Below are positions 959 to 33,303 of a stretch of DNA of 33,303 nucleotides, piece by piece. Where the stretch lies: the IMG/VR virus record IMGVR_UViG_3300029849_000019, positions 1-33,303 of that record; one strand, written 5' to 3'. The notes below the pieces were generated by a model. The model saw nothing but the letters and a program-made list of their open reading frames with translations, searched no databases and was not told the origin of the DNA. Source of the DNA: a virus. Both the position numbers and the translations under genes were made by a program. Within the stretch, counting starts at the first letter, position 1; each line of letters begins with the position of its first letter.

Positions 959-1498
959 TTAGTTGAAAAGGTCGTCGTTCTCGTCTTCAAAATCGAAATC
1001 GTCAATGCTTGTTCCGCCGTCAAGTCTTTCATCGTCTCGTGTCTTCTGAACACCGTTCAAACCTACGCCGATACCGTACTTACCGGTAAACTCATAAGGG
1101 TAAAATGATACGGCTACGTTGCCCCAAGAACCGCTATAAACCTCATTCGGGTCTGTGATGTACTGTTTCTTACCGTCGATTACGATAGGCGCTCCTTGCT
1201 TCTCTTTGCGCTTTGCGTTGATAAAGTAGCAACCTTGATACTCGGCACCGTCTTTTTCTTCGTCGCCATCTCTTAATGGGTTAGTCCATACCTTCGGGTC
1301 TTTACCGTTCAGTTTCGGGTAACGGGCTTTCAACCCCCTAAATTCTTGTTCTATAGCTTCCTTAATCTTTGGGACTTCCGGGCTATCCTTCGGAATCAAT
1401 AAGCATACACTGTAACTTGCTTCTCCTTGTCCGTTGACTTGTTGCGCTTCAAACAATCTAACATAACTCAATCTCACGTTCTTAATCATTGCTTTCAT
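959..1498 (-). CDS. Phage ssDNA-binding protein, DUF2815 family
   Basis: VRLSYVRLFE, NPLRDGDEE, YFINAKRK and SGSWGNVAVSFYPY resemble DUF2815. It has an acidic C-terminal tail DDFDFEDENDDLF and sits next to a DUF2800 nuclease. Confidence 0.8.
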   Translation of the reverse strand: MKAMIKNVRLSYVRLFEAQQVNGQGEASYSVCLLIPKDSPEVPKIKEAIEQEFRGLKARYPKLNGKDPKVWTNPLRDGDEEKDGAEYQGCYFINAKRKEKQGAPIVIDGKKQYITDPNEVYSGSWGNVAVSFYPYEFTGKYGIGVGLNGVQKTRDDERLDGGTSIDDFDFEDENDDLFN

Positions 1499-3159: not shown

Positions 3160-3164
3160 TCTTT

Positions 3165-3746: not shown

Positions 3747-3779
3747 TTTCTTCTTTTTTTTATATGGTGAATAACTAAT

Positions 3780-4057: not shown

Positions 4058-4082
4058 AACTTTATTTTTTAAATTGTTGGTG

Positions 4083-4124
4083 CAAATATAACGCTTTTGC
4101 TAATACGTTGGTTCATCCATTAAC
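4083..4124 (-). promoter_or_regulatory. Early promoter family copy P3
   Basis: Minus strand reads GTTAATGGATGAACCAAC-N16-TATATTTG, followed by CAATTTAAAAAATAAAGTTATG. Confidence 0.65.
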
Positions 4125-4338
4125 GTTTTTTATTATATATTGCTTCCAGCATGGGTTGCATGAAGTTGTATGATACCCCCTCGAACTGGTAGCTGTCAAA
4201 ATGCCCGTCGAAACGTACCTCTGTGAAAGGCGCGCTTTGCTCCGTGCCGTTATCATCTAAGAATATAAGGATGTGGCTTTTCATCTCGAAACCACCCTCT
4301 TTAATCGTCTCTCTGAAAATACAGTCAATCGCTTTCAT
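4120..4338 (-). CDS. Hypothetical protein (72 aa)
   Basis: ORF with ATG preceded by the A-rich leader CGATTAAAAAGTAGAACTATG. Confidence 0.55.
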   Translation of the reverse strand: MKAIDCIFRETIKEGGFEMKSHILIFLDDNGTEQSAPFTEVRFDGHFDSYQFEGVSYNFMQPMLEAIYNKKR

Positions 4339-4372
4339 AGTTCTACTTTTTAATCGTTTTATAACAGATAAA

Positions 4373-4402
4373 CGTTTGCGGTTTTAAAAGGTTCACCGCA
4401 AA
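4373..4402 (-). terminator. Candidate intrinsic terminator / stem-loop
   Basis: 9-bp stem GTTTGCGGT/ACCGCAAAC with a 12-nt loop, 28 nt after the stop at 4430. It is flanked by an A-run and by U-rich sequence. Confidence 0.45.
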
Positions 4403-4429
4403 CCTATTTTTTATCCAAATCTTTTAAAG

Positions 4430-4687
4430 TCATTCTTGTAAACCAAATAATCTCTCTCTCTCACTGAACTCCCATCCGCCATACAATCTGTCAAGATAAT
4501 TTTTAATCATTCTCATACAAGCGCCTCTCATATAATTCTTTTCCTTAAACCGCTTAAGATAAGCGTCTAATTCATCGTAATTATAAGTCCCGTCTTCATT
4601 AAAGACTTTGGAACCGTCGGTATCGAAATTTCTGATTTCGTTTATCTTCTCGTAAATACTGCTCTTAAGTTCTTCAAGTGATTTCAT
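4430..4687 (-). CDS. Hypothetical protein (85 aa), first gene of the early block
   Basis: ORF with ATG downstream of P5 and a long leader. Confidence 0.6.
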   Translation of the reverse strand: MKSLEELKSSIYEKINEIRNFDTDGSKVFNEDGTYNYDELDAYLKRFKEKNYMRGACMRMIKNYLDRLYGGWEFSERERLFGLQE

Positions 4688-4774
4688 AACTTTATCTTTT
4701 TAATCGTTTATTTCCAATTTGATGTCCTGGTGACCTCCTGCCATCCGGGAAACCCTTGTTTCCTTTTGACATTG

Positions 4775-4806
4775 CAAATATACGGCAAATAGCGATAGGT
4801 TGTATC
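4775..4806 (-). promoter_or_regulatory. Early promoter family copy P5 (leading promoter of the early block)
   Basis: Minus strand reads GATACAAC-N16-TATATTTGCAATGTCAAAAGGAAA, near-identical to P6. It is followed by a ~80-nt leader containing the hairpin GGAAAC-CCTT-GTTTCC (4748-4763). Confidence 0.6.
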
Positions 4807-4896
4807 TCTTTTTGTGCTAATAAACCTTAATCAAAAGTGAAAAGATGTAAAGAAATAGCCGGCGCAAGCTAAAGTGCTGATTTCCAATGGCGTAGA

Positions 4897-5116
4897 CTGC
4901 ACTGCACAGAAACACACCTAAATTCCTAAACTTTAATATAGGATATGGTGGTTTATACAGCTCGTTCTATAGTGGTAAATGGTATTTTCTCCAGGATAAT
5001 GTTTTACCCCCTTTTTACTGTGCATACTGTGCATTTACATATAATATATTATAATATAGAGAGTTAGAGTGCACAGAGACCTGCACAGACCCACTTTTCT
5101 ACTGTGCAGGCTGTGG
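4897..5116. repeat. Twin intergenic element, copy A: TGCACAG/CTGTGCA heptamer array around an AT-rich palindrome
   Basis: It aligns with 21618-21826 in the same orientation, with a core of ~135 bp that is highly similar. Heptamers start at 4903, 5018, 5027, 5070, 5082 and 5102. The palindrome ATAATATATTAT is at 5041-5052. Confidence 0.85.
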
Positions 5117-5129
5117 TTAAGGGATGTTA

Positions 5130-5163
5130 ACGAAAAATGGAGAACTGTTAACAGCCCTCCATT
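5130..5163 (-). terminator. Candidate terminator ending the late block
   Basis: Stem AATGGAG/CTCCATT encloses the palindrome CTGTTAACAG. It lies 7 nt after the stop at 5170 and is followed on the minus strand by TTTTCG. Confidence 0.5.
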
Positions 5164-5169
5164 CCCTAA

Positions 5170-5763
5170 TTATTTTAGCCTTACCGCTATGTCTATATCT
5201 ATCTTTGATTTGGGGTTTTTGTTTGATATGTCGTGCTCTATAGCCTTGACCCCCCATCTGAAAAACAAGAATCTTTTCTTCCGGACTGTGATAACACCCG
5301 TTATCGTGTCCCTACCTTGGTAGCTTAATTCCGTGCTATCCCGTTTAACCCTCGCTTGTATCGTGTTCCATGCGTCCCGGTATTCGGCTATCAACTCGCC
5401 GGCTATCAACTCGCCGGCTACCGTATCGGTACGCACAACTTCCTTTATTACTGTCTTGGTAACGGTACGGGTTGCAGAAAGCGCATCTTTTACCCGGACA
5501 TTAAGCGCGTCCACCTCTTTATATAGGTCTGCGTTCGTCTTCTTTAGCTCCTTGTGCGACATCTCTAAAGCTTTACGCTTCACCGCCGCATCCCCGAGCT
5601 TGGTTTTGTACCCTATCTGAGCATCGTTCATCGCCTCAACGTTACGTTCTAAACGTCCTATTTCGGCTCTTTGCTTCCTTATGGTGTCTACCATCTTGGT
5701 TATTGCACCAAATAGCACCATAAGGACTGCAAAGCCTATAATTATCTTTTGTAGTTTATTCAT
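5170..5763 (-). CDS. Membrane-anchored coiled-coil protein, candidate lysis accessory (i-spanin-like)
   Basis: N-terminal TM segment IIIGFAVLMVLFGAI, then a long coiled coil. It is the last gene after holin and endolysin. Start chosen at ATGAATAA, which overlaps the endolysin stop. It contains an internal 15-bp tandem duplication (AGELIAGELIA). Confidence 0.5.
   Translation of the reverse strand: MNKLQKIIIGFAVLMVLFGAITKMVDTIRKQRAEIGRLERNVEAMNDAQIGYKTKLGDAAVKRKALEMSHKELKKTNADLYKEVDALNVRVKDALSATRTVTKTVIKEVVRTDTVAGELIAGELIAEYRDAWNTIQARVKRDSTELSYQGRDTITGVITVRKKRFLFFRWGVKAIEHDISNKNPKSKIDIDIAVRLK
5386..5420. repeat. 15-bp tandem duplication (GGCTATCAACTCGCC x2.3) inside the CDS
   Basis: Read directly; it encodes the repeated GELIA. 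Confidence 0.8.
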
Positions 5764-6271
5764 AGCGTATCGCATTAATACGGTTCATCCACCCCTTGCG
5801 GTATTTCTCGTTTTTGGGTCTCGCCTTGCATATCTCATCTATGAACTTTGCTCTATCGTCTTTAATCATTTTAAAGAGCGTAGCCGCGTCCATAGCATTA
5901 ACGGCTGCAATTGTCTGTTTGCCTACGATACCGTCCGCCTTGACGCCTAAAAGACGTTGTGGGCGCTTTATACCGTGCGAACCAGAAGCCCACACCCAGT
6001 CTACTACGATATTGGCTACCGCCTGGCTGATGATGTCATCAGCTTTCCACCTATCCCAATACAACGACTTGAATACGTCGTGCCATTCGGCATCGGATAT
6101 GTTTTTCAAGTCCTCGACGGTTGGGGCTTTTTGCCCCTTCCGCTTCTTGTATTCGGTGAATGCGCCTATAGTGATACCTTTGTTCGTTGCACCCCCCAGG
6201 TCGTCCGGGTCGTTAACGAAACCGCCTTCCCACTGTAGGATGAACGGTACTAATTTACTGCTGTTCGCCAT
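5756..6271 (-). CDS. Endolysin, GH108 lysozyme-like N-terminal domain with a C-terminal peptidoglycan-binding-like domain
   Basis: FILQWEGGFVNDPDDLGGATNKGIT matches the GH108 signature EGGyxxDPxDxGGxTxxGI. Confidence 0.85.
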   Translation of the reverse strand: MANSSKLVPFILQWEGGFVNDPDDLGGATNKGITIGAFTEYKKRKGQKAPTVEDLKNISDAEWHDVFKSLYWDRWKADDIISQAVANIVVDWVWASGSHGIKRPQRLLGVKADGIVGKQTIAAVNAMDAATLFKMIKDDRAKFIDEICKARPKNEKYRKGWMNRINAIRYE

Positions 6272-6770
6272 CTTCTTTCTCCTTTTCTTCTAAGGGTATT
6301 TCAAATTCGCCGTCCTTAATTTTTTTCTTAAGTTGGAAATACTTGCTATTTACTATACTATTTAGCACTTTCACAAATTCATTTCCCGGCTGCACTACCC
6401 TAAGGTTTCTTGTTATGTTACGCGCGTATATAATAAGGAATATACCTGTGAGCACCTTTACTAAAAGCTTGTAATCTATTCCAGGCTCCAGCATGTTGCA
6501 CGTGAGGGCCACAAGGAACAGAATTGCATTGGTTAAAAACAATTCCTTAACCGCTTGCATGGTCTTTTTGTGCTTATAAGGCTTTCCTTTTGTCCTATCT
6601 GCCGAATAGCCGGCTAACCAGTTCAACACGGTAACGATAACCACTAAAAATATAAAGTCCCGTATATCCGTAACTACTGTCAGAACGGTAACAGCAAAGA
6701 ACGTGCGGAAATAGGTCTCTAATTGTTCTATCACTTGATTAACCCTATACGGGTGTTCGATACTGTACAT
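6255..6770 (-). CDS. Holin-like membrane protein (3-4 TM segments, charged C-terminus)
   Basis: Hydrophobic segments FFAVTVLTVV, FIFLVVIVTVLNWLAGY, AILFLVALTC and LTGIFLIIY, with a KE-rich tail. It lies directly upstream of the endolysin. Start taken at ATG 6770, because the track start at 6803 is a TTG. Confidence 0.55.
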   Translation of the reverse strand: MYSIEHPYRVNQVIEQLETYFRTFFAVTVLTVVTDIRDFIFLVVIVTVLNWLAGYSADRTKGKPYKHKKTMQAVKELFLTNAILFLVALTCNMLEPGIDYKLLVKVLTGIFLIIYARNITRNLRVVQPGNEFVKVLNSIVNSKYFQLKKKIKDGEFEIPLEEKEKEDGEQQ

Positions 6771-7162
6771 GCCTTTATAAACCCGTCCGCCTTCATTTGG
6801 CAAATCAACGGCTCTATAAAAAGGTCTGCCTTGCCCCGTTCGGCCTCAAACCTTTTAACCTTGCTTGTATCGGGAACTACTACCGAGCCGCCGTATGTCT
6901 GAATCTTCATACCCGTGCTCGTACTGTTTTGGTCTGCTATCTGCAAATACCGCGCAAACGCGTAGTAGCAAATAACCTTTTCAAGCCCTGCGAAGTTAGA
7001 CCCGTCCGGGATATACTGCCCCGGAACAGCTTCGTACATGCTGTCAATCTGCGGCAATATATCGAGTAGGTCTGCCTCGAAGAACGCTTTTTCTATTTTG
7101 TTGTCTTTAACGTCCGTTGCTATTTCGAACAACTGGCGGAACAACGCTATCGGGTATGCCAT
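6731..7162 (-). CDS. Hypothetical virion protein (possible head-tail adaptor)
   Basis: ORF directly after the putative portal. Start taken at ATG 7162, because the track start at 7174 is a TTG. The function is a guess based only on position. Confidence 0.4.
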   Translation of the reverse strand: MAYPIALFRQLFEIATDVKDNKIEKAFFEADLLDILPQIDSMYEAVPGQYIPDGSNFAGLEKVICYYAFARYLQIADQNSTSTGMKIQTYGGSVVVPDTSKVKRFEAERGKADLFIEPLICQMKADGFIKACTVSNTRIGLIK

Positions 7163-8285
7163 CTTCTTCCTCAAATTTATTGTTAATTTCTGTTATTGAC
7201 GGGTCAACCCCGAAAACTTGGTACAACTCGCGCGAAATGCGTTGACGTATCTTTTGCAAGCTATTGCGATAGACCTTTTGCAACTCCTTTATAACCTCGC
7301 CCGAAGCGTTAGAATAGGTCATTAGCGAGCTATCAATAAGGGGTAACGGAATGTTATAGGCAGCTATCGCGATATCCTTTCGTAACGGTTCTACATATGC
7401 CTTGTAAAGCTCCCTATCTATAGGACTGCCTAACTGGTCTACCTTGATAAACGGTTTGTCCGTGGCTACGTTCTCGTCTCTTACAGTAAGAACTGAGCCA
7501 GCGTTCTCGCTTCCCATCATATCAGCCAGCGTATCACGGAACTCCTGCTGCGCCTGCTCGGTCTCGAAATCACCGTGCGACACAATACTACACATGTGGA
7601 ATCCTCTGCCCAAAGTACGGTTAACATACTTGCCGTTCTTGTCCTCCGCGCCCATCTCGTTTCGTACCGAGTGGAACGTGCTAAGGGGATATGGGCGCGT
7701 TGTACCAAGGTTCACATATAATAGCTGCCCTTTGTGGTTCTCAATACCGCCGCATTCCTCAACTTCCGAAGCGAAGTTTTCCGGGTCAAAGGTCGGGTAT
7801 ACTGTGGAGTTCTGCGCACTGCTTGTTGCTTTGACGTTCTGTCTATCCCAGTTATTGAAAACGCGCCATCTCTTTATGCTGGGGTCCTTCAAATAGTTGT
7901 CGCTCATCTCGGCACGGACATATTCAAACGGAACGTTGTACACGTTTCGGGGCTTGTAGCCTTCGGGCGTCAGCCCATACTGTACTATCCAAGCCCAGCC
8001 CCTAAAACGTGCAACATCGTTCGCTGTAGCCTCTAAAATATCGTCCATGTTACAGCCGTTCCCGTTTGTTATCGCCGCGAAATCCTTGTTTTTGAACCCT
8101 TCACAAATGATGTTCTCGGTCATCTTTTCAACTGCGGCCGTCGCTGTCTTCGAGGCATATATAAGCTCGGCTATTTCCTGCGGATATAAGTTGCCGTCTC
8201 CGTAGTTAATAATCTTATCGCCCGTATTAGCGGACAACTTAAGCGCTTTTTCGACAACAAGCGCGAAACGTCTGTAACCTATCAT
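7107..8285 (-). CDS. Putative portal protein
   Basis: 392 aa. The N-terminal pattern NLYPQEIAELIYASKTATAAVEKMTENIICEGF resembles portal family N-termini. No other portal candidate is present in the genome. Confidence 0.5.
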   Translation of the reverse strand: MIGYRRFALVVEKALKLSANTGDKIINYGDGNLYPQEIAELIYASKTATAAVEKMTENIICEGFKNKDFAAITNGNGCNMDDILEATANDVARFRGWAWIVQYGLTPEGYKPRNVYNVPFEYVRAEMSDNYLKDPSIKRWRVFNNWDRQNVKATSSAQNSTVYPTFDPENFASEVEECGGIENHKGQLLYVNLGTTRPYPLSTFHSVRNEMGAEDKNGKYVNRTLGRGFHMCSIVSHGDFETEQAQQEFRDTLADMMGSENAGSVLTVRDENVATDKPFIKVDQLGSPIDRELYKAYVEPLRKDIAIAAYNIPLPLIDSSLMTYSNASGEVIKELQKVYRNSLQKIRQRISRELYQVFGVDPSITEINNKFEEEDGIPDSVVPPVVRNSNGR

Positions 8286-8287
8286 TT

Positions 8288-8644
8288 TTAAACCTCCTCT
8301 TTATTGACTTCTACGAAGCATTCCGCATATGCCGGGTTTTCAGTCATGAGGCGTTCCGCGATTTTGTCTGTCATGTTCGCGCTCTTATACACGACACCAT
8401 CGACGTAATGCACGATACGCGCCCCTGGCTTCATCGCCCATCTGAAAACTACCTTAGTTAAATACTTCGTTTCATACCACAAAGATAAATATTCCATATC
8501 TATGTGGCAATTAGGGTCAAGTTTTAGACCTGTCATTGTGTAATACGCATCTAACTTTTCCTGTAATGTTGCAACCTTCGGTTCAACAACTACGGGTGCA
8601 GTGCTTTCGCCCTGCCCCGTAGTATTTGTTTTTTCTTCTGCCAT
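8288..8644 (-). CDS. Hypothetical protein (118 aa)
   Basis: ORF tightly packed in the structural operon. Confidence 0.55.
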   Translation of the reverse strand: MAEEKTNTTGQGESTAPVVVEPKVATLQEKLDAYYTMTGLKLDPNCHIDMEYLSLWYETKYLTKVVFRWAMKPGARIVHYVDGVVYKSANMTDKIAERLMTENPAYAECFVEVNKEEV

Positions 8645-14968: not shown

Positions 14969-16573
14969 TTAATTATTAACTGCGATTAACGTAACGTTCG
15001 CATTTCCTGTTGATGGGTCCCAATTGCTTATCGTTCGGAGGTAAAACCAGTAGTTAAGCTCACCTACGAAGTAAAGCGCGTCGGACTTCATTTTCTGTAT
15101 ATCAAAATACGATAGGTTCATTTTTGCCGTCACCTGCCACCCGGGGGAGAAACGGTAGTAGTGCCCTGCTATCGTTGCACGGTAACCGCTCGCACGGTTG
15201 AAATAGTTATCGGGTACGTACGAGCCTGCCAACCTAATCATAGAGGCATATGGTCTAGGTGCACCGGGGTCTACCGGGAACGCGCTCTCGCCTACTGTCT
15301 CCTGCACAGATATGGCACCGCCGTAACCGCCTACCGTCTGTTTGATTGAGCCTACCTGCACCGCGTATGTCCTTGCCGCGCCGGGGGTTTCCGATACTTC
15401 AATGCTTGATTTGTCAATTTTCCCCGTCCAGTCGACCCGGTACGTAGAACTCGAAGACGGGTTGATAAATGGCTTGAGCTTCAGCGCAAACGGTTTGGAC
15501 TTGAATTCATACGTCCAGCAAAACGCTTTGCAGAACGCCTGCACAATCCCGAAAGGTGTATCTATGCCCATTGTCTCTACTAAATCCCAAGCATACTTCG
15601 GGGCTGTAGCCGAATTAATCTTGAACGAGATGTAATACGCTTCTGCATTCGGCACGGTGGAAATTGGCGTTATCGAATATACCGTAGACGAAGCGGAGGT
15701 AGTGAAGCCGAAGTTCAAATCGCGTGTCGGTCTTGGCGTAACCAAACAAGACGTAGAACCCGGGCTTACCGGGCTGTACTTGTAGTTGCCATCGGGTCTT
15801 ACCGCGCCGCGCTGAAACGGCAAAGTGAATGTACCGCCGTTGCTTCTAAGATAAACCGTAGCAGGAGCAGAAGGTGGGAGAACTATAAACGAATCGTCGG
15901 TAAACCTTAAATCGAATTTCGAACCAGTCATGTAGGTAAAACACGTGGCTACCTCGTTGTTCTCCGCTATCATGTAGTTGGCTGCATATACGGAGCCGTC
16001 CAGTCCGTCGTGCGCGCCTTTAAAAACTAATTGGCTCTCCGCGTCCTTGTAGTCCCCCGCCGTTTTAGTTACCCGGTCTGCGATGTATGACATAAGCAAG
16101 GGCGTTGACCCGTTCGCCGCGTATATCGTAGGTATAGTAACGCCGTTCGGGTACGCGTAATTAAGGCTATCTATATACGTTGAAAACTGATATGCTGGTG
16201 TTTCCAATTTAGGTAGGGCAACCACCGGGGCGCGCAATGTCGAAAGCTTCGATATGTTTTCTATCAGTTCGAGGCTATACCCGTCCTCATCTGCCGTTAC
16301 CCGTACACGGAACAAACCGCTACCGAACGGAATATTGAAGCCCCCGAAATGCAACTCTGCACGGTACGGGGATGTCCTTATGAACTTCCCCGGGAAACGC
16401 TCGGAACGGAATACCCGGTCATTAACTTCTGAACGCGGTATGTTGATTGCCCCGGAGTAACTGACCGTTTGCTCCGTGAACTTCAAAGGGTCCGGGTTGT
16501 TGATAGTCAGCTTCACCGAGTTAGCGGTTACACCGTCTATCACTTCGCCATTAATTCGTATTGTTAAATCCAT
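14969..16573 (-). CDS. Tail / baseplate-like structural protein (534 aa)
   Basis: Large beta-rich ORF adjacent to the tape-measure-like gene. The N-terminus LTIRINGEVIDG is reminiscent of distal tail proteins. Confidence 0.4.
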   Translation of the reverse strand: MDLTIRINGEVIDGVTANSVKLTINNPDPLKFTEQTVSYSGAINIPRSEVNDRVFRSERFPGKFIRTSPYRAELHFGGFNIPFGSGLFRVRVTADEDGYSLELIENISKLSTLRAPVVALPKLETPAYQFSTYIDSLNYAYPNGVTIPTIYAANGSTPLLMSYIADRVTKTAGDYKDAESQLVFKGAHDGLDGSVYAANYMIAENNEVATCFTYMTGSKFDLRFTDDSFIVLPPSAPATVYLRSNGGTFTLPFQRGAVRPDGNYKYSPVSPGSTSCLVTPRPTRDLNFGFTTSASSTVYSITPISTVPNAEAYYISFKINSATAPKYAWDLVETMGIDTPFGIVQAFCKAFCWTYEFKSKPFALKLKPFINPSSSSTYRVDWTGKIDKSSIEVSETPGAARTYAVQVGSIKQTVGGYGGAISVQETVGESAFPVDPGAPRPYASMIRLAGSYVPDNYFNRASGYRATIAGHYYRFSPGWQVTAKMNLSYFDIQKMKSDALYFVGELNYWFYLRTISNWDPSTGNANVTLIAVNN

Positions 16574-16577
16574 ATTG

Positions 16578-17597
16578 TTAAGGTTCTATAATTTCAAACT
16601 TGCATTTAAACGCTGCTACTCGTCCCGTCGCACCGCCTTGTATGTTCAGAGCGTTTGGGTTCTGTATTGTAACGCGTGCCCACTGGTTAGTAGCTAAAGG
16701 GAATACTCCGGCAACCTCGCCCGAACGTGAAAGCCAGTACAGCGCGTTTTGGTTATCATCCGTTACTACTACGTTTATCGTAACGTCGTAGGATAGCACG
16801 CGGTTGCCTCCTGTGAAGTTAACCAAGTAAGTAGGCACAATGCGGTATTGGTCAAAATACATCGTATCATACGCCCCTTTGCTGTTAAGCCATCGAAGCG
16901 TTACCCGTTTTTTAGGGTCTGGGCAATACGGGTATTTACGTTCAAAACGTGCGTAGCCCCATACGTTGGCATCGTTTGAGGTTCTAAACTCTATGGTTGG
17001 TATGTTTCCGCCATTCCAGACTGTAGTCATCGCCCAAGCATAGGATTTTTCAGCGCCACCATTCCTGGCCCGTAGTCTACCGTCCGCGTTTGCCGTAAGC
17101 TGTCCGTATCTCAAGGCAAAGTTAAACGGTGTGCCCGTTAACGGGCTGTTAAGGAACGAGGCACAACTAAAGTCCAATTGGTTAAACAGCCCGTTTCTGT
17201 AGTCCGATAGGTTGCGCGTGTTCGCCTGCGATGCAAACCGTCCATCCGCTACGGGGGATTGAATTACTCGCATAGCGATAGATTTCAATGTACCCTCCAC
17301 GTATTGTATTCGCACCATGTCCACGAAATCAATAAACCCCAAGCCTGCGTTGATGCTCTCCATTATACTCGGTGTGGCTGCTGCCATCAGCGACATATCC
17401 AATACCGCGCCCTCGTATGGGGTAACAACAGCCGCTGTCTTTGCGGCCCCATTACGTGAAAAGATTAGGGCTATACTCGTAACCGAGGCGACCTGCTCCA
17501 GGCGTATAGGGCGATAGAGACCTGCGCCGATGCCGCCGATGTAGATCATTCCGTCTTCCGTTGCCGTTTGGCCGGTTAATAGATTTCGTATAATCAT
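16578..17597 (-). CDS. Tail structural protein (339 aa)
   Basis: ORF with an ATGA overlap to its upstream neighbour, beta-rich composition and a structural context. Confidence 0.4.
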   Translation of the reverse strand: MIIRNLLTGQTATEDGMIYIGGIGAGLYRPIRLEQVASVTSIALIFSRNGAAKTAAVVTPYEGAVLDMSLMAAATPSIMESINAGLGFIDFVDMVRIQYVEGTLKSIAMRVIQSPVADGRFASQANTRNLSDYRNGLFNQLDFSCASFLNSPLTGTPFNFALRYGQLTANADGRLRARNGGAEKSYAWAMTTVWNGGNIPTIEFRTSNDANVWGYARFERKYPYCPDPKKRVTLRWLNSKGAYDTMYFDQYRIVPTYLVNFTGGNRVLSYDVTINVVVTDDNQNALYWLSRSGEVAGVFPLATNQWARVTIQNPNALNIQGGATGRVAAFKCKFEIIEP

Positions 17598-18034
17598 TGC
17601 TTTTTAGTTAAAATGGTTAATATTTCCGCCCTTACTATCCGGGACACCTCTACTGTGATACGCTGCACCATCTCGGGGGTTAGTATAGAGCTTGCTACGC
17701 CGCCTTCGTTGTGCTCGTTGGGTACTTTAATACCGTCGCGCTTGATAACGTATGCTATCGCGTATGCCGCTTCTTCGGGTATGTCCGTACCGGCGTTCGC
17801 GTTCTTGTCTTTTATCCATTGCTTAATGGCAGAAACGGGTGGGAAGCTACCCGCCGCCCTTCCGTCTTCCATCTGATAGATGTATGCCGGGCTTTCTATC
17901 TTAACGCCGCCTGCATACTCTACCACTTCTGTTTCTCTGTCGAAGCGACCCGAGGCATTAAGTCTCATGCGATAGTAGTTAGCTACTATCTCGTCGCGTA
18001 TCTGCCTAACTAATTGGGTAACTTCCTTGTTCAT
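17594..18034 (-). CDS. Putative neck / head-tail joining protein (146 aa)
   Basis: Size and position. There is a weak resemblance to gp10-like proteins (AYIYQMEDGR). Confidence 0.35.
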   Translation of the reverse strand: MNKEVTQLVRQIRDEIVANYYRMRLNASGRFDRETEVVEYAGGVKIESPAYIYQMEDGRAAGSFPPVSAIKQWIKDKNANAGTDIPEEAAYAIAYVIKRDGIKVPNEHNEGGVASSILTPEMVQRITVEVSRIVRAEILTILTKKQ

Positions 18035-21314: not shown

Positions 21315-21324
21315 TAGTATTCGG

Positions 21325-21429
21325 ACTATCCCAGTATTGGGACGGCTCGGACTTCACGGACTATCCCAGTATTGGGACGGCTCGGACTTCACGGACTATC
21401 CCAGTATTGGGACGGCTCGGACTTCACGG
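21325..21429. repeat. Three perfect tandem 35-bp iterons (ACTATCCCAGTATTGGGACGGCTCGGACTTCACGG)
   Basis: Copies at 21325, 21360 and 21395 are identical base for base, with partial degenerate copies at both ends. Each contains the TCCCA-GTAT-TGGGA mini-palindrome. Confidence 0.95.
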
Positions 21430-21456
21430 ACGATACCTCGCAGTTCGTATCAACTG

Positions 21457-21520
21457 CTTTGGTTCTTTTCAATCATGGCACAAAGGTAGGCAACAAATCA
21501 CATCAGACCAACCTACGGTC
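21457..21520 (-). promoter_or_regulatory. Putative late-block promoter with an early-box copy just downstream
   Basis: Minus strand reads GCCTACCTTTGTGCC (TAnnTTTG at 21481-21488), then 10 nt later GAAAAGAACCAAAG (21457-21470). Confidence 0.45.
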
Positions 21521-21617
21521 AGTTAGGCCTTTTTCTACAAATAAAGTTTACAAATAAATTATATTTACATTATTTCTTATGTGTACACAGCAACTACCTG
21601 TCTCACTGAACGTTACA

Positions 21618-21826
21618 AGCACCTGCACAGACACACACTTTTTTTTCTAAACTTATATTTAGAGAATAGTATATTTTGTATCCTCCAAAATACACTTTTC
21701 TCAAAAATAATGTTTTACCCTCTTTTTACTGTGCATCTGTGTATTTACATATAATATATTATAATATAAGGAGTTAGACTGCACAGTAACCTGCACAGTA
21801 GTGATTTTTTACTGTGCAGCTGTGCA
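21618..21826. repeat. Twin intergenic element, copy B
   Basis: Aligns with 4897-5116. Heptamers start at 21624, 21729, 21737 (degenerate), 21780, 21792, 21812 and 21820. The palindrome ATAATATATTAT is at 21751-21762. Confidence 0.85.
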
Positions 21827-21859: not shown

Positions 21860-21909
21860 TGAATATAAACAAAAGCCCAAATCTGACATTTTGTAATCAG
21901 ATTTGGGCT
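21860..21909 (-). terminator. Rho-independent terminator ending the early block
   Basis: 13-bp stem AGCCCAAATCTGA/TCAGATTTGGGCT with a 10-nt loop, followed on the minus strand by TTTTGTTTATATT. Confidence 0.75.
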
Positions 21910-23246: not shown

Positions 23247-23529
23247 CTAATCTATTAAATTGTCGGTATATACGTAATAATACTTTTCACAATTTTTAAA
23301 TACCACGTCGAAAGGCATCAGTTCTGACGCTGGCCAGCCATCGGTTTGCGATGCATCTACTATCAGCAAGGGTTCGTCAGCCAGGTCATTGTGGCTATAG
23401 CCTACTACCTCCAATTGCTCACCTTCATAGTTAGCAAATCGCCCTATGTACTTTTCCAACGGGTGGACTTCTCTCTCTCTGATTAAACTGCGAGTACATC
23501 TCACTAACTGCACTTAAATACTTTTCCAT
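23247..23529 (-). CDS. Hypothetical protein whose canonical ATG (23529) is out of frame with the long ORF (23247..23513, GTG start). An (AG)5 tract lies between them.
   Basis: The P7 promoter, leader and ATG give a 32-codon frame. The long ORF is in the +1 frame. The CAGAGAGAGAGAA tract (23470-23480 on plus) could bridge the two by a 2-nt slip. Confidence 0.45.
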
Positions 23530-23555
23530 AATCTTCTGTTTTTAAATCGTTGATA

Positions 23556-23597
23556 CAAATATAACGCTTTTCCCATTATGTTGGTTCTTTCGTTAAC
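23556..23597 (-). promoter_or_regulatory. Early promoter family copy P7
   Basis: Minus strand reads GTTAACGAAAGAACCAAC-N16-TATATTTG, followed by CGATTTAAAAACAGAAGATTATG. Confidence 0.65.
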
Positions 23598-23659
23598 ACT
23601 ATTTAAGTATTAAACTATCTTTCAGCGATAGCCCGTACTCTAATTGCTGTAGCTTGAAA

Positions 23660-25561: not shown

Positions 25562-25950
25562 TTAAAATTGTCCTTTATAAATAAATAATTTCTCGGTAGT
25601 TTTTCTTTTATCGGAGCTCATGTTATTTTGTAATGGCTTCTCCCAAATTTTTACAAAGTCTTCCGGAGCTTGGTATTCGGAGATGTAGACCTTGCCCGGA
25701 AGCAGCTCTTAACGTCGTTGTACAGTTCGGGGTCTATTTGCTCGGGGTATTTCTTCCCGGACGCTAAGCCCTCAAACATAGCTATCAGATACTCGTTGCT
25801 ATCGTTTGCTATCCTGTTTCCTAATACTTGGGCGGTCACGTTACACCCACCGCAAAATGGTTCTACAAAATATTGCCCTTCTTTTCTGTCTGCCAAAATT
25901 ATAGGCAAAATTTCTTTTGCTATTCTTGTCTTGCTCCCTAAATAAATCAT
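25562..25950 (-). pseudogene. Decayed Dam-like (D12 class) N6-adenine DNA methyltransferase: the N-terminal ~80 aa and C-terminal ~50 aa sit in different frames and the catalytic middle is missing
   Basis: The N-terminus IYLGSKTRIAKEILPII...YFVEPFCGGCNV is the AdoMet motif I. After YNDVK the frame runs into junk and stops. The +1 frame reads ELLPGKVYISEYQAPEDFVKIWEKP...EKLFIYK, a typical Dam C-terminus. No DPPY motif appears in any frame. Confidence 0.6.
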
Positions 25951-25977
25951 ACTTAATTATGTTTTTTTAATTTGATA

Positions 25978-26316
25978 TTACAAAGATAACCCTCTTCCCG
26001 GTACGTTGTTTATTTCCTTAACATTGTTTAAGAAGAAACTTATTGCGGCGTCCCTGCTTTCCAAATCGTCGATGACAAATACTTTGAAGCCCAAAGCCTC
26101 TAACTTGCTATGTATTAGTAATTGTATCTTGGTTGGTTTCTTACCCGTGGTCTTTATCTCGGCAAAGCCTACATACCCACCCTGGCAAAGTATCATTCTA
26201 TCTGGCAAGCCTTTTATAAAGGTGGATAATAGTTTTATTACCCACACTTTTTTTGTTCGGTTAAGCTTCTCGGAGAATGTACGCTCTAAATATTTTTCAC
26301 TTATTATATCCTCCAT
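25978..26316 (-). CDS. VRR-NUC domain nuclease
   Basis: GLPDRMIL...GFAEIKTTGKKPTKIQ matches the PD...ExK...Q core of VRR-NUC. Its neighbourhood with SNF2 is the usual one. Confidence 0.75.
   Translation of the reverse strand: MEDIISEKYLERTFSEKLNRTKKVWVIKLLSTFIKGLPDRMILCQGGYVGFAEIKTTGKKPTKIQLLIHSKLEALGFKVFVIDDLESRDAAISFFLNNVKEINNVPGRGLSL
25981..26012 (-). promoter_or_regulatory. Promoter upstream of the methyltransferase remnant
   Basis: Minus strand reads GGGTTATCTTTGTAAT (TAnnTTTG), 30 nt upstream of ATG 25950. Confidence 0.45.
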
Positions 26317-28038: not shown

Positions 28039-28117
28039 AACTTTTTGTTTTTAAATTGTTGTACGATATAAACAACGGAAGCTTTTGGAAGGTTCACCGT
28101 TATTGCCTTATTAACTT

Positions 28118-28258
28118 TTATTTGTTTATCTCTGTAATCCATTGAATGCCCAACCAGTCGTTAAGGTCTGTACTCTTTTGCAATCTTGCATTTTCTTTTT
28201 TAATCTCGTTGGCTTCTTGCTTTGAAATCTGCTTTCCGTTTACATAATACTTAGTCAT
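28118..28258 (-). CDS. Small hypothetical protein (46 aa)
   Basis: Canonical P6 promoter, leader and ATG. Sequence is MTKYYVNGKQISKQEANEIKKENARLQKSTDLNDWLGIQWITEINK. Confidence 0.45.
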   Translation of the reverse strand: MTKYYVNGKQISKQEANEIKKENARLQKSTDLNDWLGIQWITEINK

Positions 28259-28300
28259 AATCTTTTGTTTTTAAATTGTTATTATTTCCTTTTGACATTA

Positions 28301-28342
28301 CAAATATACGGCAAATACTGATAGGTTGTATATTTCATTAAC
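28301..28342 (-). promoter_or_regulatory. Early promoter family copy P6
   Basis: Minus strand reads GTTAATGAAATATACAAC-N16-TATATTTGTAATGTCAAAAGGAAA, near-identical to P5. Confidence 0.65.
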
Positions 28343-28422
28343 ACCATTTAAGAAATAAATCTCATTTAGTTATTCTGTTAACAGTTAGTTAACATTTGGG
28401 GGCCTTTACACCCCCTCTGTTA

Positions 28423-30861
28423 TCACTCGTTAACAATACGTTCATATCCTCGTACGCGTCCGAGGCCCATAACGGTTTTACCGTTCGCCGCTCGCTGCCA
28501 CCCTTGTACTTTAGACATGATAGCGGCTATCTCTCTGCTCTCTTTAGCGGTTACGCGCCCTACTTCCATCTCGAACACGTCCGTGGCTATTTGCATAACC
28601 GAAACGAAGTCCATTTTTTCCAGTGTAAAATCTTCCGGGTCTATCTTCGACGCGTCGTACTCCCTAAAGTACATGCGCCTTTCATTCACATACATACGTC
28701 TCCAATCTGCCGGCACAAGCATATTCAAATACGCTTCTACTGATGCCGTACGGGGGTCTGCCTCGAAATGCTCTTCTCGTCCTTTCTCGGCGATTTCCTC
28801 GGCTTCACGGGATAACAAAGTACTCACTTTTCGGAAATACATTTGTACGGCTTCCGCCCATAACTGGTCTACGTAATCGTCGAAGTCCTTCTCAAAGATA
28901 AGATGCGTATTGGCGTTCGCCTTAACCTTCACGGGCAAAAAGCGTCTGCCGCCCGTATCGTCCTTTAGAAATTCGTCCCGGTTAGTCGTACCTATAAAGA
29001 TACATTGCCTGGGGAAGTTCTTAGTAACACGCCCGTATGCTGGTCTAAAGCTGTCCTCGGTTTTAGAAATGAAGTTTTTCACGCCCTCAACCTCTGAACG
29101 TCTCATTGCTGACAACTCGGCTACCTCCAATATCCAATTACCTTGCAATTGTTCAAACGCGCTTTTCCCGTCCATACTCGAAAGACTATCCGAAAACCAA
29201 TGTTTGCCAAGCATCCGAATAAATGTGCTCTTTCCCGCGCCCTGCTCGGACTGTAACACTAACATACTGTCGAACTTGCAGCCCTTTTGAAAGATACGCT
29301 TAACCGCTCCTACCATCATAATTCGGAATGCCTCGCGGGTGTATACGTTATCTTCGGCACCCATGATGTGTATTAAGGTCTTATCTACACGTTCGATACC
29401 GTCCCATTTAAGTTTAGTTAAATACTCCTGCACTGGGTGGAAAGAATTCATTTCTGCGGACAAGGCTATAGCATCGTCAATCTTCGCACTGTTGGATATG
29501 CCGTAAACGTCCTCGATGTGCTTACGTACGCCCGAATAATCTACGTCCTGAAAGTCCAAAGAACTATCCTTTGCGCGCCAAAGAGGTACACGGGTAACAA
29601 CCCGGCGTTCTTTAAATAGGTCTCGCGCGATAAGCCCCTTTAGGTTCGGGTCGTACTTCATTATCAACCCTAAATTCTTTGCAGATGGGAGGTAAGCGCC
29701 GCGCTTATCGGTTTCCAACTTCGCCATTGCGTCCTCATACGTTGTTGCTACATCGCTGTCTGTTGCCTCCTCTACTTCTATAACGTCGTCGAAATCGTCC
29801 ATGATTTCACCAGCCTTAACCGCAAGCATCCGGGCACGCGCCGCAGCTACCTTTGCATCCTTGTTTACAAGTTCGTTCATGGCTTCGGTCGAGTTCTTCC
29901 TATCGGTGCCCTTATCCAGCTTACCGAACTTGTGTACACGTACAAGGTCGTAGGCGTTGAACACGTGGTTGCCTTGTATCGGGTCATTGTTATGGAACGA
30001 GTAGGCGAACATATCATTAAAGGTAAGCATACCGCCCGATGTGGAACCGCCCGTGTAAGTCCATCGGTCCTCCTGGTCGGTCGGTTCGTACACGTCCGAT
30101 AGGTATTCCGAGATAGCCTCGCTAATCGTGTAGGCCCTGCAAAAGTCGCCTACATTACCCTCTTTTAGTGTGGGGTCTTGTTGTTCTTTAGCAAGCGTCC
30201 GGGCTTCGCCCTTCTCGTCCTTGTGGTATGCCCATTCGGTTGTATCACTCCAATCGTCGTACATGCCCAGATACTTTTGCACATCCAAAGGGCTTTCGTT
30301 AAACGCCGAGTAATCTATAAACTCGTAGTCCACATCCCGGGAAACAGAGGGAAAAAACATGCAGCGCTCGGGTTGAAAGGTGGTGCGGTCGTACAAGTCT
30401 ATTCCTGTTAATTCTGCAACCTTTCGGGCGATGGCTTCGTATTGTTCCCCGTCCACTGGTTCGGACAACGGAATGATAACACGGTAGCGAAATGTATTTG
30501 CCTTCGGGTTATGCTTGTGCGTCCCATGAATGATACACGCGCAATTGATAACCGAGTAGAACGCTTCCGGGAAGTTCTTTTCTCCGTAGTCAATATCAAG
30601 CGCCAAAATAGAGCGCTCACCGACATTGTTTTTGTTTCTACGGCTACCGAACAACTCGCCGCCCATGAAGGCGCCTACGTCTTTAATATTACCCTGCTCG
30701 GCTTTGCTCGCGCTTATAAACTCCCGGTACGTCTCATCCGTAACGGTTGCCTTTGTCAACTTCTCGGTTAACTCGTCCCATGAGTAGGAGCGGTTTTTCC
30801 ATGAAGTAGACTTTGCGCTGCTCGCTGTAGCAATTTTAAAAACCATTTTTCTCAATTCCAT
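28423..30861 (-). CDS. DNA primase-helicase: VirE_N/BT4734-like prim-pol domain plus a VirE/D5-type P-loop NTPase
   Basis: ILALDIDYG, HGTHKH and RYRVIIPL in the N-domain, and Walker A SEQGAGKSTF in the C-terminal half. Length is 812 aa. Confidence 0.85.
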   Translation of the reverse strand: MELRKMVFKIATASSAKSTSWKNRSYSWDELTEKLTKATVTDETYREFISASKAEQGNIKDVGAFMGGELFGSRRNKNNVGERSILALDIDYGEKNFPEAFYSVINCACIIHGTHKHNPKANTFRYRVIIPLSEPVDGEQYEAIARKVAELTGIDLYDRTTFQPERCMFFPSVSRDVDYEFIDYSAFNESPLDVQKYLGMYDDWSDTTEWAYHKDEKGEARTLAKEQQDPTLKEGNVGDFCRAYTISEAISEYLSDVYEPTDQEDRWTYTGGSTSGGMLTFNDMFAYSFHNNDPIQGNHVFNAYDLVRVHKFGKLDKGTDRKNSTEAMNELVNKDAKVAAARARMLAVKAGEIMDDFDDVIEVEEATDSDVATTYEDAMAKLETDKRGAYLPSAKNLGLIMKYDPNLKGLIARDLFKERRVVTRVPLWRAKDSSLDFQDVDYSGVRKHIEDVYGISNSAKIDDAIALSAEMNSFHPVQEYLTKLKWDGIERVDKTLIHIMGAEDNVYTREAFRIMMVGAVKRIFQKGCKFDSMLVLQSEQGAGKSTFIRMLGKHWFSDSLSSMDGKSAFEQLQGNWILEVAELSAMRRSEVEGVKNFISKTEDSFRPAYGRVTKNFPRQCIFIGTTNRDEFLKDDTGGRRFLPVKVKANANTHLIFEKDFDDYVDQLWAEAVQMYFRKVSTLLSREAEEIAEKGREEHFEADPRTASVEAYLNMLVPADWRRMYVNERRMYFREYDASKIDPEDFTLEKMDFVSVMQIATDVFEMEVGRVTAKESREIAAIMSKVQGWQRAANGKTVMGLGRVRGYERIVNE

Positions 30862-30864
30862 AAT

Positions 30865-32883
30865 TTAATCTTTTTTGTAATATTCAGTAATATATCCTGC
30901 TGCTCTTAACGGTATGCCTTTCGCCCAACTCGGGGCCTTGCACATGGCATCACTCATTATTTGCAGCGTCTTTTCTTCGTTTCCGTCCTTCGGTATCTCG
31001 GCGGCTATCTCATCGTGCACATGCAACACGATATTAAAGCCTAAATCAAAAACCTTGAAAATCGCATTTGCCAGTAAGTCTCGGGCTATCGCTTGCACAA
31101 CGTTCTCGGTTAGCTTGCCTCCGTAGGTGTTTAGCTTAACCCATTTCCCAGAGGTTTGGTCTTGACCCATGTAAGAGATATCCTCAACCTCAAACGAACC
31201 GTTAACGCCCTCGATTGTGCGTTTCCCCATTCTTGCCGATGGGTAGAACAACTTCCTACCGCTCGGTATCTCAATAGTCATTGCGCCGCTCTCGTATCGG
31301 AATATAATACTTGAAACATCGTCTATTCTGTAGACCTGCTCGCGTCTCGTTCCGATACATCTTTTTGCACTATCCTCTAACGAACGCCACAAAGATACTA
31401 TTCTTTTATTAGCTTCTCTCCATTTTGACAATATTTGAGGTTTTTCTTCGTCTTTTAACGCTTTTTTAGTGTCCATTGTAGTAAGAGCGTTTACTCCGCC
31501 CCCATACCCCAATGCAAGCTCTGCAACCTTTCCGCGCTGCCTTAAGTCGTCGCCTTTGTGTACCGGGACACCGAACATTTTAGATGCCGAGGCGCAATAT
31601 ATATCAGCCTTCGGGTCGTTAAATAAGTCTAAACGCCATTGCTCATTAGCAACCCATGCAATTACCCGGGCTTCAATCGCCGAGAAGTCAGCCACAGCGA
31701 ACGTGTACCCCTCGGGGGCGATAAACGCGGTGCGTATAAGCTGCGAAAGTATATGTGTAGGCTTGTCATATATAACTTCCATCATATCCAGGTCGTGCAT
31801 CTTTGCCAAGTCTCTCGCCCCGTCCAGGTCTTCGATGTGGTTCTGTGGTAAGTTCTGTAGTTGAACCAGGCGCCCAGCCCATCGCCCGGTACGGTTCGCA
31901 CCGTAGTAACGGAACAAGCCCCTAATACGGTTGCCTCTCCCGGCGCTCGCCAGTATGGCGGTGTATTTGGCATTCGACGTTTTGCCTATCTCCCTACGTA
32001 GGTCAATAACGTCTAACACTGCTTGCTTATCCTCGTCAGTAACATTTTTAAGGCTCGTTATGGTCTTTATCACCCCCTCAATGTTATTCTTATTGAGTGA
32101 ATTGATAGCCAAGCCTGTACGCTCTTTAATGAAGCCCTTAAGCTGGGGCATGGACTTTAGAGAACTCAACCCGAATTCCTTTTCGGCTTTCTCGGTAATA
32201 CGCGCTTTATATTCTTCGTCCATATCCTGCGCGGCGTGTGCCAGCTCAAGGTCTGCCAATATACCGTAATCGTTTATACGCTGGTCTGCTGCGTAAATTC
32301 GTTGCTCTTCTTCCGGGAATTCAAACCGGGATAGCTTACCGAATATCTCCTTTTCCGATAGCACATCATAACGTAGGTAATCTATGAATTCTTTCCAGTC
32401 CTCGGGGGCGTGTTCCGGTAGGTTACGTGTGCGGCCTCCGTTTGTTTTAGTAGGCTTGCACGGAATAGAAAAGTAACGGATAAGGTTTTTGCCCGTGCCC
32501 TTCTTCTTGTCGTCAAGGTTTAGAATATTAGATACCTCTTCCAATGATGCGGGCATACCGCAATATAACGACATGTTAGCCGTACAGAAAAAACGCATAG
32601 GGCTTATGTCGAACCCGTACTCGCGCAAACATATACGCTCAAACGTAGCGTTGTGTGCTACTATTACAATGTCCTCGTTGTTCTTTACATACTCGAACAA
32701 ATCGTAAAACTCGGTCAGCCCCCCGGGCTTCGTTAAGTCGATAATTGTAACGTCCGTATCGGTGTCCCACATGTAACCGCAAAGGAGTATCTCGAAATTC
32801 TCGTCCTCACAGTATTTATAGTTACCGGCGCTTTTAATGTCCGCTTCGGAATACGTTTCAAAGTCAATAAACAGATGTCTCAT
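30865..32883 (-). CDS. Family A DNA polymerase with a 3'-5' exonuclease domain
   Basis: Exo I FIDFETYS. Pol motif A VADFSAIEARV, motif B RQRGKVAELALGYGGG and motif C LHVHDEI. Confidence 0.9.
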   Translation of the reverse strand: MRHLFIDFETYSEADIKSAGNYKYCEDENFEILLCGYMWDTDTDVTIIDLTKPGGLTEFYDLFEYVKNNEDIVIVAHNATFERICLREYGFDISPMRFFCTANMSLYCGMPASLEEVSNILNLDDKKKGTGKNLIRYFSIPCKPTKTNGGRTRNLPEHAPEDWKEFIDYLRYDVLSEKEIFGKLSRFEFPEEEQRIYAADQRINDYGILADLELAHAAQDMDEEYKARITEKAEKEFGLSSLKSMPQLKGFIKERTGLAINSLNKNNIEGVIKTITSLKNVTDEDKQAVLDVIDLRREIGKTSNAKYTAILASAGRGNRIRGLFRYYGANRTGRWAGRLVQLQNLPQNHIEDLDGARDLAKMHDLDMMEVIYDKPTHILSQLIRTAFIAPEGYTFAVADFSAIEARVIAWVANEQWRLDLFNDPKADIYCASASKMFGVPVHKGDDLRQRGKVAELALGYGGGVNALTTMDTKKALKDEEKPQILSKWREANKRIVSLWRSLEDSAKRCIGTRREQVYRIDDVSSIIFRYESGAMTIEIPSGRKLFYPSARMGKRTIEGVNGSFEVEDISYMGQDQTSGKWVKLNTYGGKLTENVVQAIARDLLANAIFKVFDLGFNIVLHVHDEIAAEIPKDGNEEKTLQIMSDAMCKAPSWAKGIPLRAAGYITEYYKKD

Positions 32884-32999: not shown

Positions 33000-33303
33000 T
33001 TAATCGGCAAAAATAGGTGAGTAGAAAATAAAACCTCGCTTCTCGTTAAGAATGACGTATGTTTGCTGTGGTTCCTCGTATGCCAACCCGTGACCCATTG
33101 CGAACGCGTCGAAACCTTTTAGAGAACCGTTAACACAAACCTCTTTAGTATATACCATTTGGTGATAATGTCCCAAAAAGGCTTTATCAATTTGTATTGT
33201 TTGGTTCATTTTGGCGTACCATCTCATCATAGACGGGTAAATACCTCCGATGCCGCCAGCCGTGCGGAATTGATGCCCGTGCGCAAATAGCACTTTCTTT
33301 CCG
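33000..33303 (-). CDS. Calcineurin-like metallophosphoesterase, 3' part (33205-33303 duplicates 1-99)
   Basis: Same frame as 1..896 through the overlap. It contains the HGH motif. The M shown at 33293 in the track is an internal GTG. Confidence 0.75.
   Translation of the reverse strand, partial: GKKVLFAHGHQFRTAGGIGGIYPSMMRWYAKMNQTIQIDKAFLGHYHQMVYTKEVCVNGSLKGFDAFAMGHGLAYEEPQQTYVILNEKRGFIFYSPIFAD

Follow-up and report, generated by a model that had tools for sequence, protein, structure and literature searches.

Twin iteron elements at the module boundaries of a Bacteroides uniformis siphophage are candidate replication origins of a primase-helicase initiator

What purpose is served by two similar intergenic elements that mark both boundaries between the early and the late genes of a small phage genome? 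The question is raised by the virus record IMGVR_UViG_3300029849_000019, which was analysed over its positions 1 to 33,303 (33,303 nucleotides, hereafter called the window). The elements, named copy A and copy B, consist of short repeats (iterons) and an AT-rich core; their coordinates are compiled in Table 1. A first-pass annotation had offered three roles for them, namely a shared upstream control region of the two leading promoters, a pair of replication origins (or an origin and a terminus) and sites of recombination. Out of these, the origin pair gained support from the anatomy of the elements, from a Rep homologue encoded by the phage and from the co-variation of this protein with the iterons, while recombination lost ground. 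We concluded that the elements are probably paralogous copies of a replication-origin module, forming twin origins bound by the primase-helicase PriRep, because the arrays are built like the origins of homologous initiators and because the wing of the PriRep winged helix co-varies with the iterons of both copies.

The source phage is a Bacteroides uniformis siphophage with a genome of ~33.2 kb. The ends of the window are identical (1-99 = 33205-33303), which reflects overlapping ends in the assembly of a genome that is circular or circularly permuted, and since the first and last 99 bases match, the circle comprises 33,204 bp. The large terminase subunit TerL is 96-98% identical to that of the B. 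uniformis siphophages EMB1, EMB2, BU241P1 and BU1-1, and identities go down to 55% with the B. thetaiotaomicron ARB25/SJC phages and B. fragilis phage BF1-2. The phage family, which includes the ARB25 and SJC phages, has recently been proposed as "Bacteroiduroviridae" and is among the most often isolated groups of gut Bacteroidales phages.

Copies A and B were ~81% identical in an alignment over the ~210-bp core. The order and orientation of the repeats, re-read on the minus strand, agreed with the annotated architecture of copy B, and palindrome and iteron array recur in copy A as had been claimed. If sites with one mismatch are counted, each copy contains 7-8 iterons in both orientations, with the core CTGTGCA and an extended form of approximately ACTGTGCAG. 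In copy B the pairs i1/i2 and i3/i4 are separated by 13 nucleotides, and additional degenerate iterons were found at 21584-21590 (copy B) and 4898-4904 (copy A). The genome has 13 exact CTGTGCA heptamers, and twelve of them reside inside the two copies; 2.6 +/- 1.5 heptamers are expected by chance, and none of 100 shuffles reached 13. The annotated palindrome is present as well, the reported positions 21751-21762 being the inner 12 bp of a 14-bp sequence at 21750-21763. The distances between the palindrome centres, given as 16,710 and 16,494 bp on the 33,204-bp circle, were correct. The sole exact heptamer outside the twin elements (15303-15309) lies within a gene for a 534-aa tail protein, in which five iteron-like sites (at most one mismatch) occur at ~15251-15550; this cluster is probably due to chance.

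GenBank contained 13 relatives matching copy B, and all of them (13/13) matched at two places each. Ten genomes spanning the phage family were fetched and each was compared with itself. Nine of the ten carry twin elements at the same two junctions, one after the lysis genes and one before the small terminase gene terS, down to a TerL identity of 55%. In the relatives the pair splits the genome at ~44-50%, the near-antipodal placement resulting from a late module of nearly constant size. The elements share one plan: pairs of iterons come first, then a box resembling CTTAACT, next an AT-rich stretch and an iteron pair in inverted orientation, and finally distal iterons behind a long spacer that is also AT-rich. 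The iteron itself changes from lineage to lineage: CTGTGCA in the B. uniformis phages, TGGAACA in the Phocaeicola phages BM127P1 and BV57P1, TTTGACA in BO668P1, GATAGAT in ARB25, TCTATGC in BF1-2 and ATGACAT in BC669P1. A fixed design combined with a changing motif points to a co-evolving DNA-binding protein. Furthermore, the two copies of one genome are 70-89% identical, while the identity between lineages (~58%) is at the level of shuffled sequences, and therefore the copies evolve in concert and are kept matched. As a separate observation, copies A and B of phage BX788P2 (locus L002) share a similarity of 0.89 with each other against 0.82-0.86 with their counterparts in the window, which suggests recent gene conversion.

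These data also bear on two other explanations. According to the first one, the elements are structured RNAs or parts of 3′ untranslated regions, whose inverted repeats form hairpins in the transcript. Indeed, TGCACAG-N13-CTGTGCA could pair as a 7-bp hairpin, and the inverted repeat survives the motif changes. The direct repeats, however, change like the inverted ones, which pairing does not require; both copies follow terminators, and scanning of the whole window with Rfam 15 gave no match at the gathering score. We regard an RNA element as highly improbable. According to the second one, the copies are sites of site-specific or homologous recombination, by which the genome would be resolved into two circles of ~16.6 kb, or they represent a miniature mobile repeat. 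That they are direct repeats, so similar over ~210 bp, is in keeping with it. Nevertheless, the scan of 20 early/terS proteins did not identify any recombinase or transposase, and the products would be two defective half-genomes, each without essential genes. A mobile repeat, moreover, would have to be reconciled with copies that always occupy the same two junctions and with a 26-nt element core that had no match in 185,579 species genomes. The iteron-triplet pattern gave a single match in the species genomes, the contig CAZYSQ010000071.1, which is a fragment of a related phage, and the phage collection did not disclose any element matches beyond the 13 relatives. The first-pass annotation had named a common mobile repeat in unrelated genomes as an outcome that would speak against its proposal; both scans came out negative in this respect. 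By reason of the fixed positions, the two species-genome scans and the confinement of phage-collection matches to the 13 relatives, a repeat of the MITE (miniature inverted-repeat transposable element) type was rejected, and this whole group of explanations seems hardly credible. The matching contig itself (5.4 kb) had been filed in an 'Acholeplasmataceae' metagenome-assembled genome. It is collinear with window positions 2893-8440 at 84-89%, copy A included, and to judge from this alignment it is mis-binned.

Which protein might read the iterons? The best candidate is the 812-aa product PriRep. It matched the Pfam VapE-like family with an E value of 4.2e-80, and a profile built from ten family members aligned with Rep1 of the Staphylococcus aureus pathogenicity island (SaPI) SaPI1 (PDB 7PDS) at 4.6e-112, the alignment extending over the helicase and the C-terminal domain (CTD; profile positions 377-791). 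NCBIfam contained no match for PriRep. A model of the CTD (aa 668-812; pLDDT 86.6) shows a helix (772-784) followed by a beta-hairpin (788-797). Its best structural matches were the chains of 7PDS (probability 1.0, TM 0.67), followed by weak similarities to winged helices of the forkhead, IRF and GntR types. The N-terminal 370 aa were modelled (pLDDT 89) as an AEP primase-polymerase, with cyanophage S-2L PrimPol (probability 1.0) and RSF1010 RepB′ (probability 0.99) as top matches. SaPI Reps are self-loading initiator-helicases, whose CTD winged helix reads penta- or hexanucleotide iterons; a SaPI origin comprises 6-12 iterons, of which two or more lie on either side of an AT-rich centre and point in opposite directions, and in SaPI5 a primase is fused to Rep, giving PriRep5 (PMC9371898).

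To relate this protein to the iterons, close relatives were collected from IMG/VR, with either PriRep or TerL in the centre of the locus. Where the PriRep sequence shares 94-97% identity with that of the window, every iteron position of both copies was found to be switched together, with unchanged spacers. The iterons became TGACCAG in L017 and L019, TACACAG in L018 and L119, GACACAG in L123, L126 and L128, and mixtures of TGTACAG and TACACAG in L013 and L016. The PriRep substitutions of the switched genomes cluster within the last 110 residues, above all at 793-796. According to the CTD model, residues 793, 794 and 796 sit at the tip of the wing. All 16 genomes with NGKT at 793-796 kept the GTGCA core at 67-100% of the iteron positions, whereas in the ten genomes with other patches (GRRA, GRKA, EARP, DAKS, NAKP, NARV, GAKA, KAKP, RQIA) it was present at 0-75%, seven of the ten having none (Mann-Whitney P 2e-5, kinship ignored). 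Out of all alignment columns of 39 ORFs (open reading frames), including TerS and the structural genes, only N793, G794 and T796 of PriRep scored 1.0 with the iteron type; the next best column reached 0.73. As far as can be read from these alignments, the co-variation points to an interaction between PriRep and the iterons.

The same screen argues against pac packaging signals read by the small terminase. Such a role would agree with the location of copy B ~370 bp upstream of terS and with the fact that the relatives appear to be headful packagers, but copy A is 16.5 kb away from terS, it would be unusual for pac sites to occur as a pair separated by half a genome, and the best TerS column reached merely 0.54 compared to 1.0 for PriRep. 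TerS was rejected as the iteron reader for this reason, and pac sites are very unlikely. We also rejected the product of the gene at 4430-4687 as a regulator or partner; this gene is present in one relative only and cannot encode a conserved partner. It is the first gene after copy A, encodes 85 aa without a family match and occurs in a close relative; the place right after the element looks like a slot for variable genes.

A further locus strengthens the connection between PriRep-type proteins and arrays of this design. In the distant relative L088, a 53-kb contig with a PriRep 41% identical to that of the window, twelve GGAAACA iterons are located at L088 12383-12669, directly downstream of priRep and thus in the position of SaPI origins. 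They form inverted pairs around an AT-rich stretch of ~100 bp, the same design as in the twin elements. Only three more GGAAACA motifs exist in the 22-kb L088 locus, which fits a single SaPI-like origin. Arrays of another kind were not used as evidence: the 24-bp tandem repeat AATGCCACAGTAGAAGCATGCGGT, present in at least ~15 copies at L036 16350-16760, 4 kb downstream of PriRep, is a different type of repeat. Similar arrays exist in L044, L053, L055 and L060, these loci being contigs of ~50 kb.

On this basis a mechanism can be proposed. PriRep would bind the iterons with the wing of the winged helix at its C-terminus. If it behaves like the SaPI Reps, its hexamers would assemble on both sides of the AT-rich region and melt it, then thread onto the single strands and act as the replicative helicase. 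The primase domain would make primers, which the family A polymerase of the phage would extend. Replication would start at the elements, which are placed in the two gaps between a terminator and a promoter that bound the early and the late module.

Several observations weigh against the interpretation as twin origins or lend it no support. Relative to priRep, one copy resides ~6.6 kb downstream and the other ~7.3 kb upstream, unlike the SaPI origin, which is located right after rep, and the gap just after priRep (28039-28422) does not contain iterons. The profiles of GC and AT skew are monotonic and without an origin or terminus signal; they are uninformative because every gene is on one strand. 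The co-variation does not itself tell the purpose of the PriRep-iteron interaction, many contigs of the set originate from one metagenome data set, and the association figures ignore phylogeny. BX788P2 possesses the altered wing RQIA, yet 75% of its iterons have retained the GTGCA core. Finally, the Parabacteroides phage PM21P1 (locus L005), the tenth genome of the family comparison, is an exception with patchy twin similarity and no clear iterons. Its junction gaps (17398-17976 and 34540-34911) have only the short patches TGTATAATAACTTT, GCAGCACACA and ATATACGAAAT in common. In this lineage the twin element may be degenerate or built differently.

Granted that PriRep binds both copies, they need not be equivalent. 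It is possible, though it appears clearly less likely than a pair of true origins, that only one copy initiates and that the other one is a PriRep-bound accessory site, either a looping enhancer like crr of phage P4 or a site where forks stall so that theta replication gives way to concatemeric replication, a role proposed for oriR of phage SPP1. SPP1 provides a precedent, since its oriL and oriR are both bound by gp38 and oriR has been proposed to be a fork barrier. Furthermore, the phage encodes an exonuclease, a Gp2.5-like annealing protein and a VRR-NUC nuclease, the recombination kit needed for such a switch, and the distal spacers of the two copies differ, among other things by a 10-bp indel. 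Against unequal roles, both copies of every lineage have the full set of iterons and the AT palindrome, neither is degenerate, and their specificity switches jointly. Thus, an accessory copy would refine the explanation by PriRep-bound origins and is no alternative to PriRep binding.

The surroundings of the elements raise the question of whether they are instead transcriptional operators, through which PriRep or another protein switches the lead promoters P5 and P-late without any origin function. All substantial ORFs of the window are on the minus strand. In the direction of transcription, copy A is followed by a short early block (exonuclease, Gp2.5-like single-stranded DNA-binding protein), the genes for a metallophosphatase, the family A polymerase and the primase-helicase, small early genes, the genes for an SNF2 helicase and the VRR-NUC nuclease, a terminator and copy B. 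Thereafter terS, terL, the structural genes, the lysis genes and a terminator lead back to copy A. The terminator that had been annotated ahead of copy B was confirmed (21909-21874). For the one ahead of copy A the support is divided: the hairpin 5163-5130 has a favourable fold (-19.9 kcal/mol, z -4.4) with a U-run behind it, but it failed the rules of the terminator scanner and was not called. The two annotated -7 boxes are present at the expected distances past the last iterons, and their sequences TATATTTG and TACCTTTG both fit TAnnTTTG, which we take to be the Bacteroides -7 consensus. A sigma-70 promoter scan, which is unsuited to Bacteroides promoters, gave chance-level matches and was not used. 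The statement that the copies occupy the only two large intergenic regions had to be revised: they lie in the two largest gaps (482 and 745 bp), and a third gap of 384 bp exists at 28039-28422.

Operators would account for the position of the copies directly after terminators and shortly upstream of the -7 boxes, as well as for the occupation of both module boundaries throughout the family, and PriRep, if bound ~120-135 bp upstream of the two lead promoters, could influence them. On the other hand, the only protein that tracks the iteron type is an initiator-helicase, and searches of the early proteins against Pfam, PHROGs and NCBIfam did not identify a transcription factor. P5 belongs to a family of at least seven early-promoter cassettes, the others of which have no such element upstream. 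The L088 array directly follows priRep, and the anatomy fits origins bound by homologous Reps. A purely regulatory role is unlikely in our opinion, although the copies may regulate transcription as a second function, and twin origins remain the preferred explanation.

Some further observations were made in the vicinity of the elements and elsewhere in the window. The cassettes (50-92 nt, repeat families D1 and D2) are located upstream of early genes at 1543-1592, 1901-1992, 4050-4141, 4756-4805, 23523-23614, 25948-26039 and 28268-28359. They hold a TAnnTTTG -7 box and a common leader and look like a repeated module of early promoter and 5′ untranslated region, to which P5, following copy A, belongs. 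A perfect 35-bp tandem repeat (CGGACTATCCCAGTATTGGGACGGCTCGGACTTCA, 3.1 copies, 21322-21431) was found in the leader that separates the putative late promoter from terS. The unit is present in one copy in five relatives and absent from the others, and therefore looks like a recent local amplification; it may be related to packaging or to the terS leader. The metallophosphatase-like ORF (33000-33293) spans the junction of the circle. At 25651-25950, an ORF of 99 aa matches only the N-terminal part of the DNA adenine methyltransferase (Dam) family phrog_56. As BX788P2 has two full-length Dam genes at this place, the ORF is likely a truncated Dam remnant.

Table 1. Position of the twin elements, their parts and associated features in the window
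Feature	Position	Strand	Remarks
Twin element copy B	21618..21826	-	Iteron array and AT-rich core; between early-block terminator and late promoter
Copy B iterons i1, i2 (TGCACAG-C-TGCACAG on minus strand)	21812..21826	-	Motif scan
Copy B iterons i3, i4 (CTGTGCA-N5-CTGTGCA)	21780..21798	-	Directed to AT core; motif scan
Copy B 14-bp palindrome TATAATATATTATA	21750..21763	.	In 82% A+T core 21737-21775; candidate DNA-unwinding element
Copy B iterons i5, i6 (TACACAG-A-TGCACAG)	21729..21743	-	Far side of AT core, orientation opposite to i3/i4; motif scan
Copy B distal iteron i7 (CTGTGCA)	21624..21630	-	Past ~100-bp AT-rich spacer; motif scan
Twin element copy A	4898..5110	-	Paralogous iteron array and AT-rich core; between lysis genes and promoter P5
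Copy A iterons i2 (5102-5108), i3 (5082-5088), i4 (5070-5076)	5070..5108	-	Motif scan
Copy A 14-bp palindrome TATAATATATTATA	5040..5053	.	In 88% A+T core
Copy A iterons i5 (5027-5033), i6 (5018-5024)	5018..5033	-	Motif scan
Copy A distal iteron i7 (4903-4909) and overlapping one-mismatch iteron 4898-4904	4898..4909	-	Motif scan
PriRep, 812 aa: AEP primase-polymerase, VapE-type SF3 (superfamily 3) helicase, C-terminal winged helix	28423..30861	-	Pfam, profile, structure models; putative iteron-binding initiator
Codons of PriRep residues 793-796 (NGKT), tip of winged-helix beta-hairpin	28474..28485	-	Putative determinant of iteron specificity
Family A DNA polymerase	30865..32883	-	Likely replicase partner of PriRep
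Gp2.5/Enc34-type ssDNA-binding and annealing protein	959..1498	-	Family matches
Intrinsic terminator ending early block, just upstream of copy B	21874..21909	-	Terminator scan, 14-bp stem
Terminator-like hairpin and U-run ending late (lysis) block, just upstream of copy A	5130..5163	-	Folding
Bacteroides-type -7 box TACCTTTG of putative late promoter	21481..21488	-	136 bp past last iteron of copy B
-7 box TATATTTG of promoter P5	4775..4782	-	121 bp past last iteron of copy A; member of repeated early-promoter cassette family D2

Searching the literature for the element, the phage names and the origins of B124-14 and B40-8, we found no prior description of origins or of the element. An origin composed of iterons and read by a Rep protein is a known kind of system. 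What is new is that such a system is assigned to a large family of gut phages, that its duplication is conserved at the two module boundaries and remote from the rep gene, that the copies evolve concertedly, and that there is a compact specificity patch of wing and iteron with natural switch variants. The candidate origins, a named initiator and a patch of four residues with such variants are defined targets for experiments. Defined origins would be useful for Bacteroides phage and shuttle-vector tools and for reading coverage-based activity signals in viromes. The concertedly evolving pair is a tractable case of protein-DNA co-evolution and is relevant to the question, dating from SPP1, of why two origins are retained by some phages. 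More tentatively, the observations might be combined: the twin origins would be a coordinated pair and no redundant duplicate, with one PriRep-bound copy at the head of each transcription module. The early-to-late switch and the transition from circular to concatemeric replication would be tied to initiation, or to a halt of the fork at the second copy. The rapid co-diversification of wing and iterons among co-circulating B. uniformis phages that are otherwise 95-97% identical would then reflect selection for replicon exclusivity, possibly directed against cross-activation or parasitism by co-infecting relatives or satellites. This broader picture is doubtful; if it is true, it would provide a natural, readable recognition code, e.g., residue 794 G, A or R with TGC, TAC/GAC or TGAC iterons, respectively.

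The remark that no phage element of this layout has been described was too strong, as Bacillus phage SPP1 possesses two similar origins bound by one protein. Its oriL and oriR are alike in build (repeats and an AT-rich unwinding element), far apart, and both bound by gp38; oriR is situated between genes, with transcription signals on both sides, and has been proposed to arrest forks, leading to the switch to concatemeric replication. Like SPP1, the phage described here has two distant elements of repeats and AT-rich DNA on a circularised genome, all genes on one strand and, to judge from its relatives, apparently headful packaging. Gp38, by contrast, is unrelated to PriRep and works together with the loader gp39, the DnaB-type helicase gp40 and host polymerases, whereas a fusion of PrimPol and SF3 helicase is found here. 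In SPP1, oriL is located inside gene 38, the origins are ~13 kb apart in 44 kb and the repeats are direct, while our copies are situated at both module junctions. The resemblance is, as judged from the proteins, functional and not a matter of homology. In the alpha protein of the satellite phage P4, a primase, an SF3-type helicase and a C-terminal origin-binding domain are combined, and iterons are present at ori and crr, several kb apart. Crr, however, is an accessory site of two 120-bp direct repeats, while the phage copies are each a single full module of equivalent content; the alpha primase is not of the AEP type, and the likeness to PriRep is by description only. SV40 large T antigen and papillomavirus E1 are SF3 helicase initiators that load as two hexamers at origins, in which short inverted repeats flank an AT-rich or melting region. 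Their origin-binding domain has another fold and is N-terminal to the helicase, and there is a single origin per genome. The closest counterparts are the SaPI origins, even though a SaPI has one origin immediately after rep and iterons of 5-6 nt, compared to two full origin-like copies remote from the rep gene and iterons of 7-9 nt (core 7) in the phage. Moreover, SaPIs are satellite islands of Gram-positive bacteria, while we are dealing with a virulent phage of Bacteroidota that has its own polymerase. With 7-8 iterons per copy, each twin element lies within the SaPI range of 6-12 and has the AT-rich centre with opposed pairs on its sides (i3/i4 and i5/i6). The initiators are homologous, both having a VapE-type SF3 helicase and a CTD winged helix, the primase is fused to PriRep as in SaPI5, and in both systems the specificity for the iterons varies.

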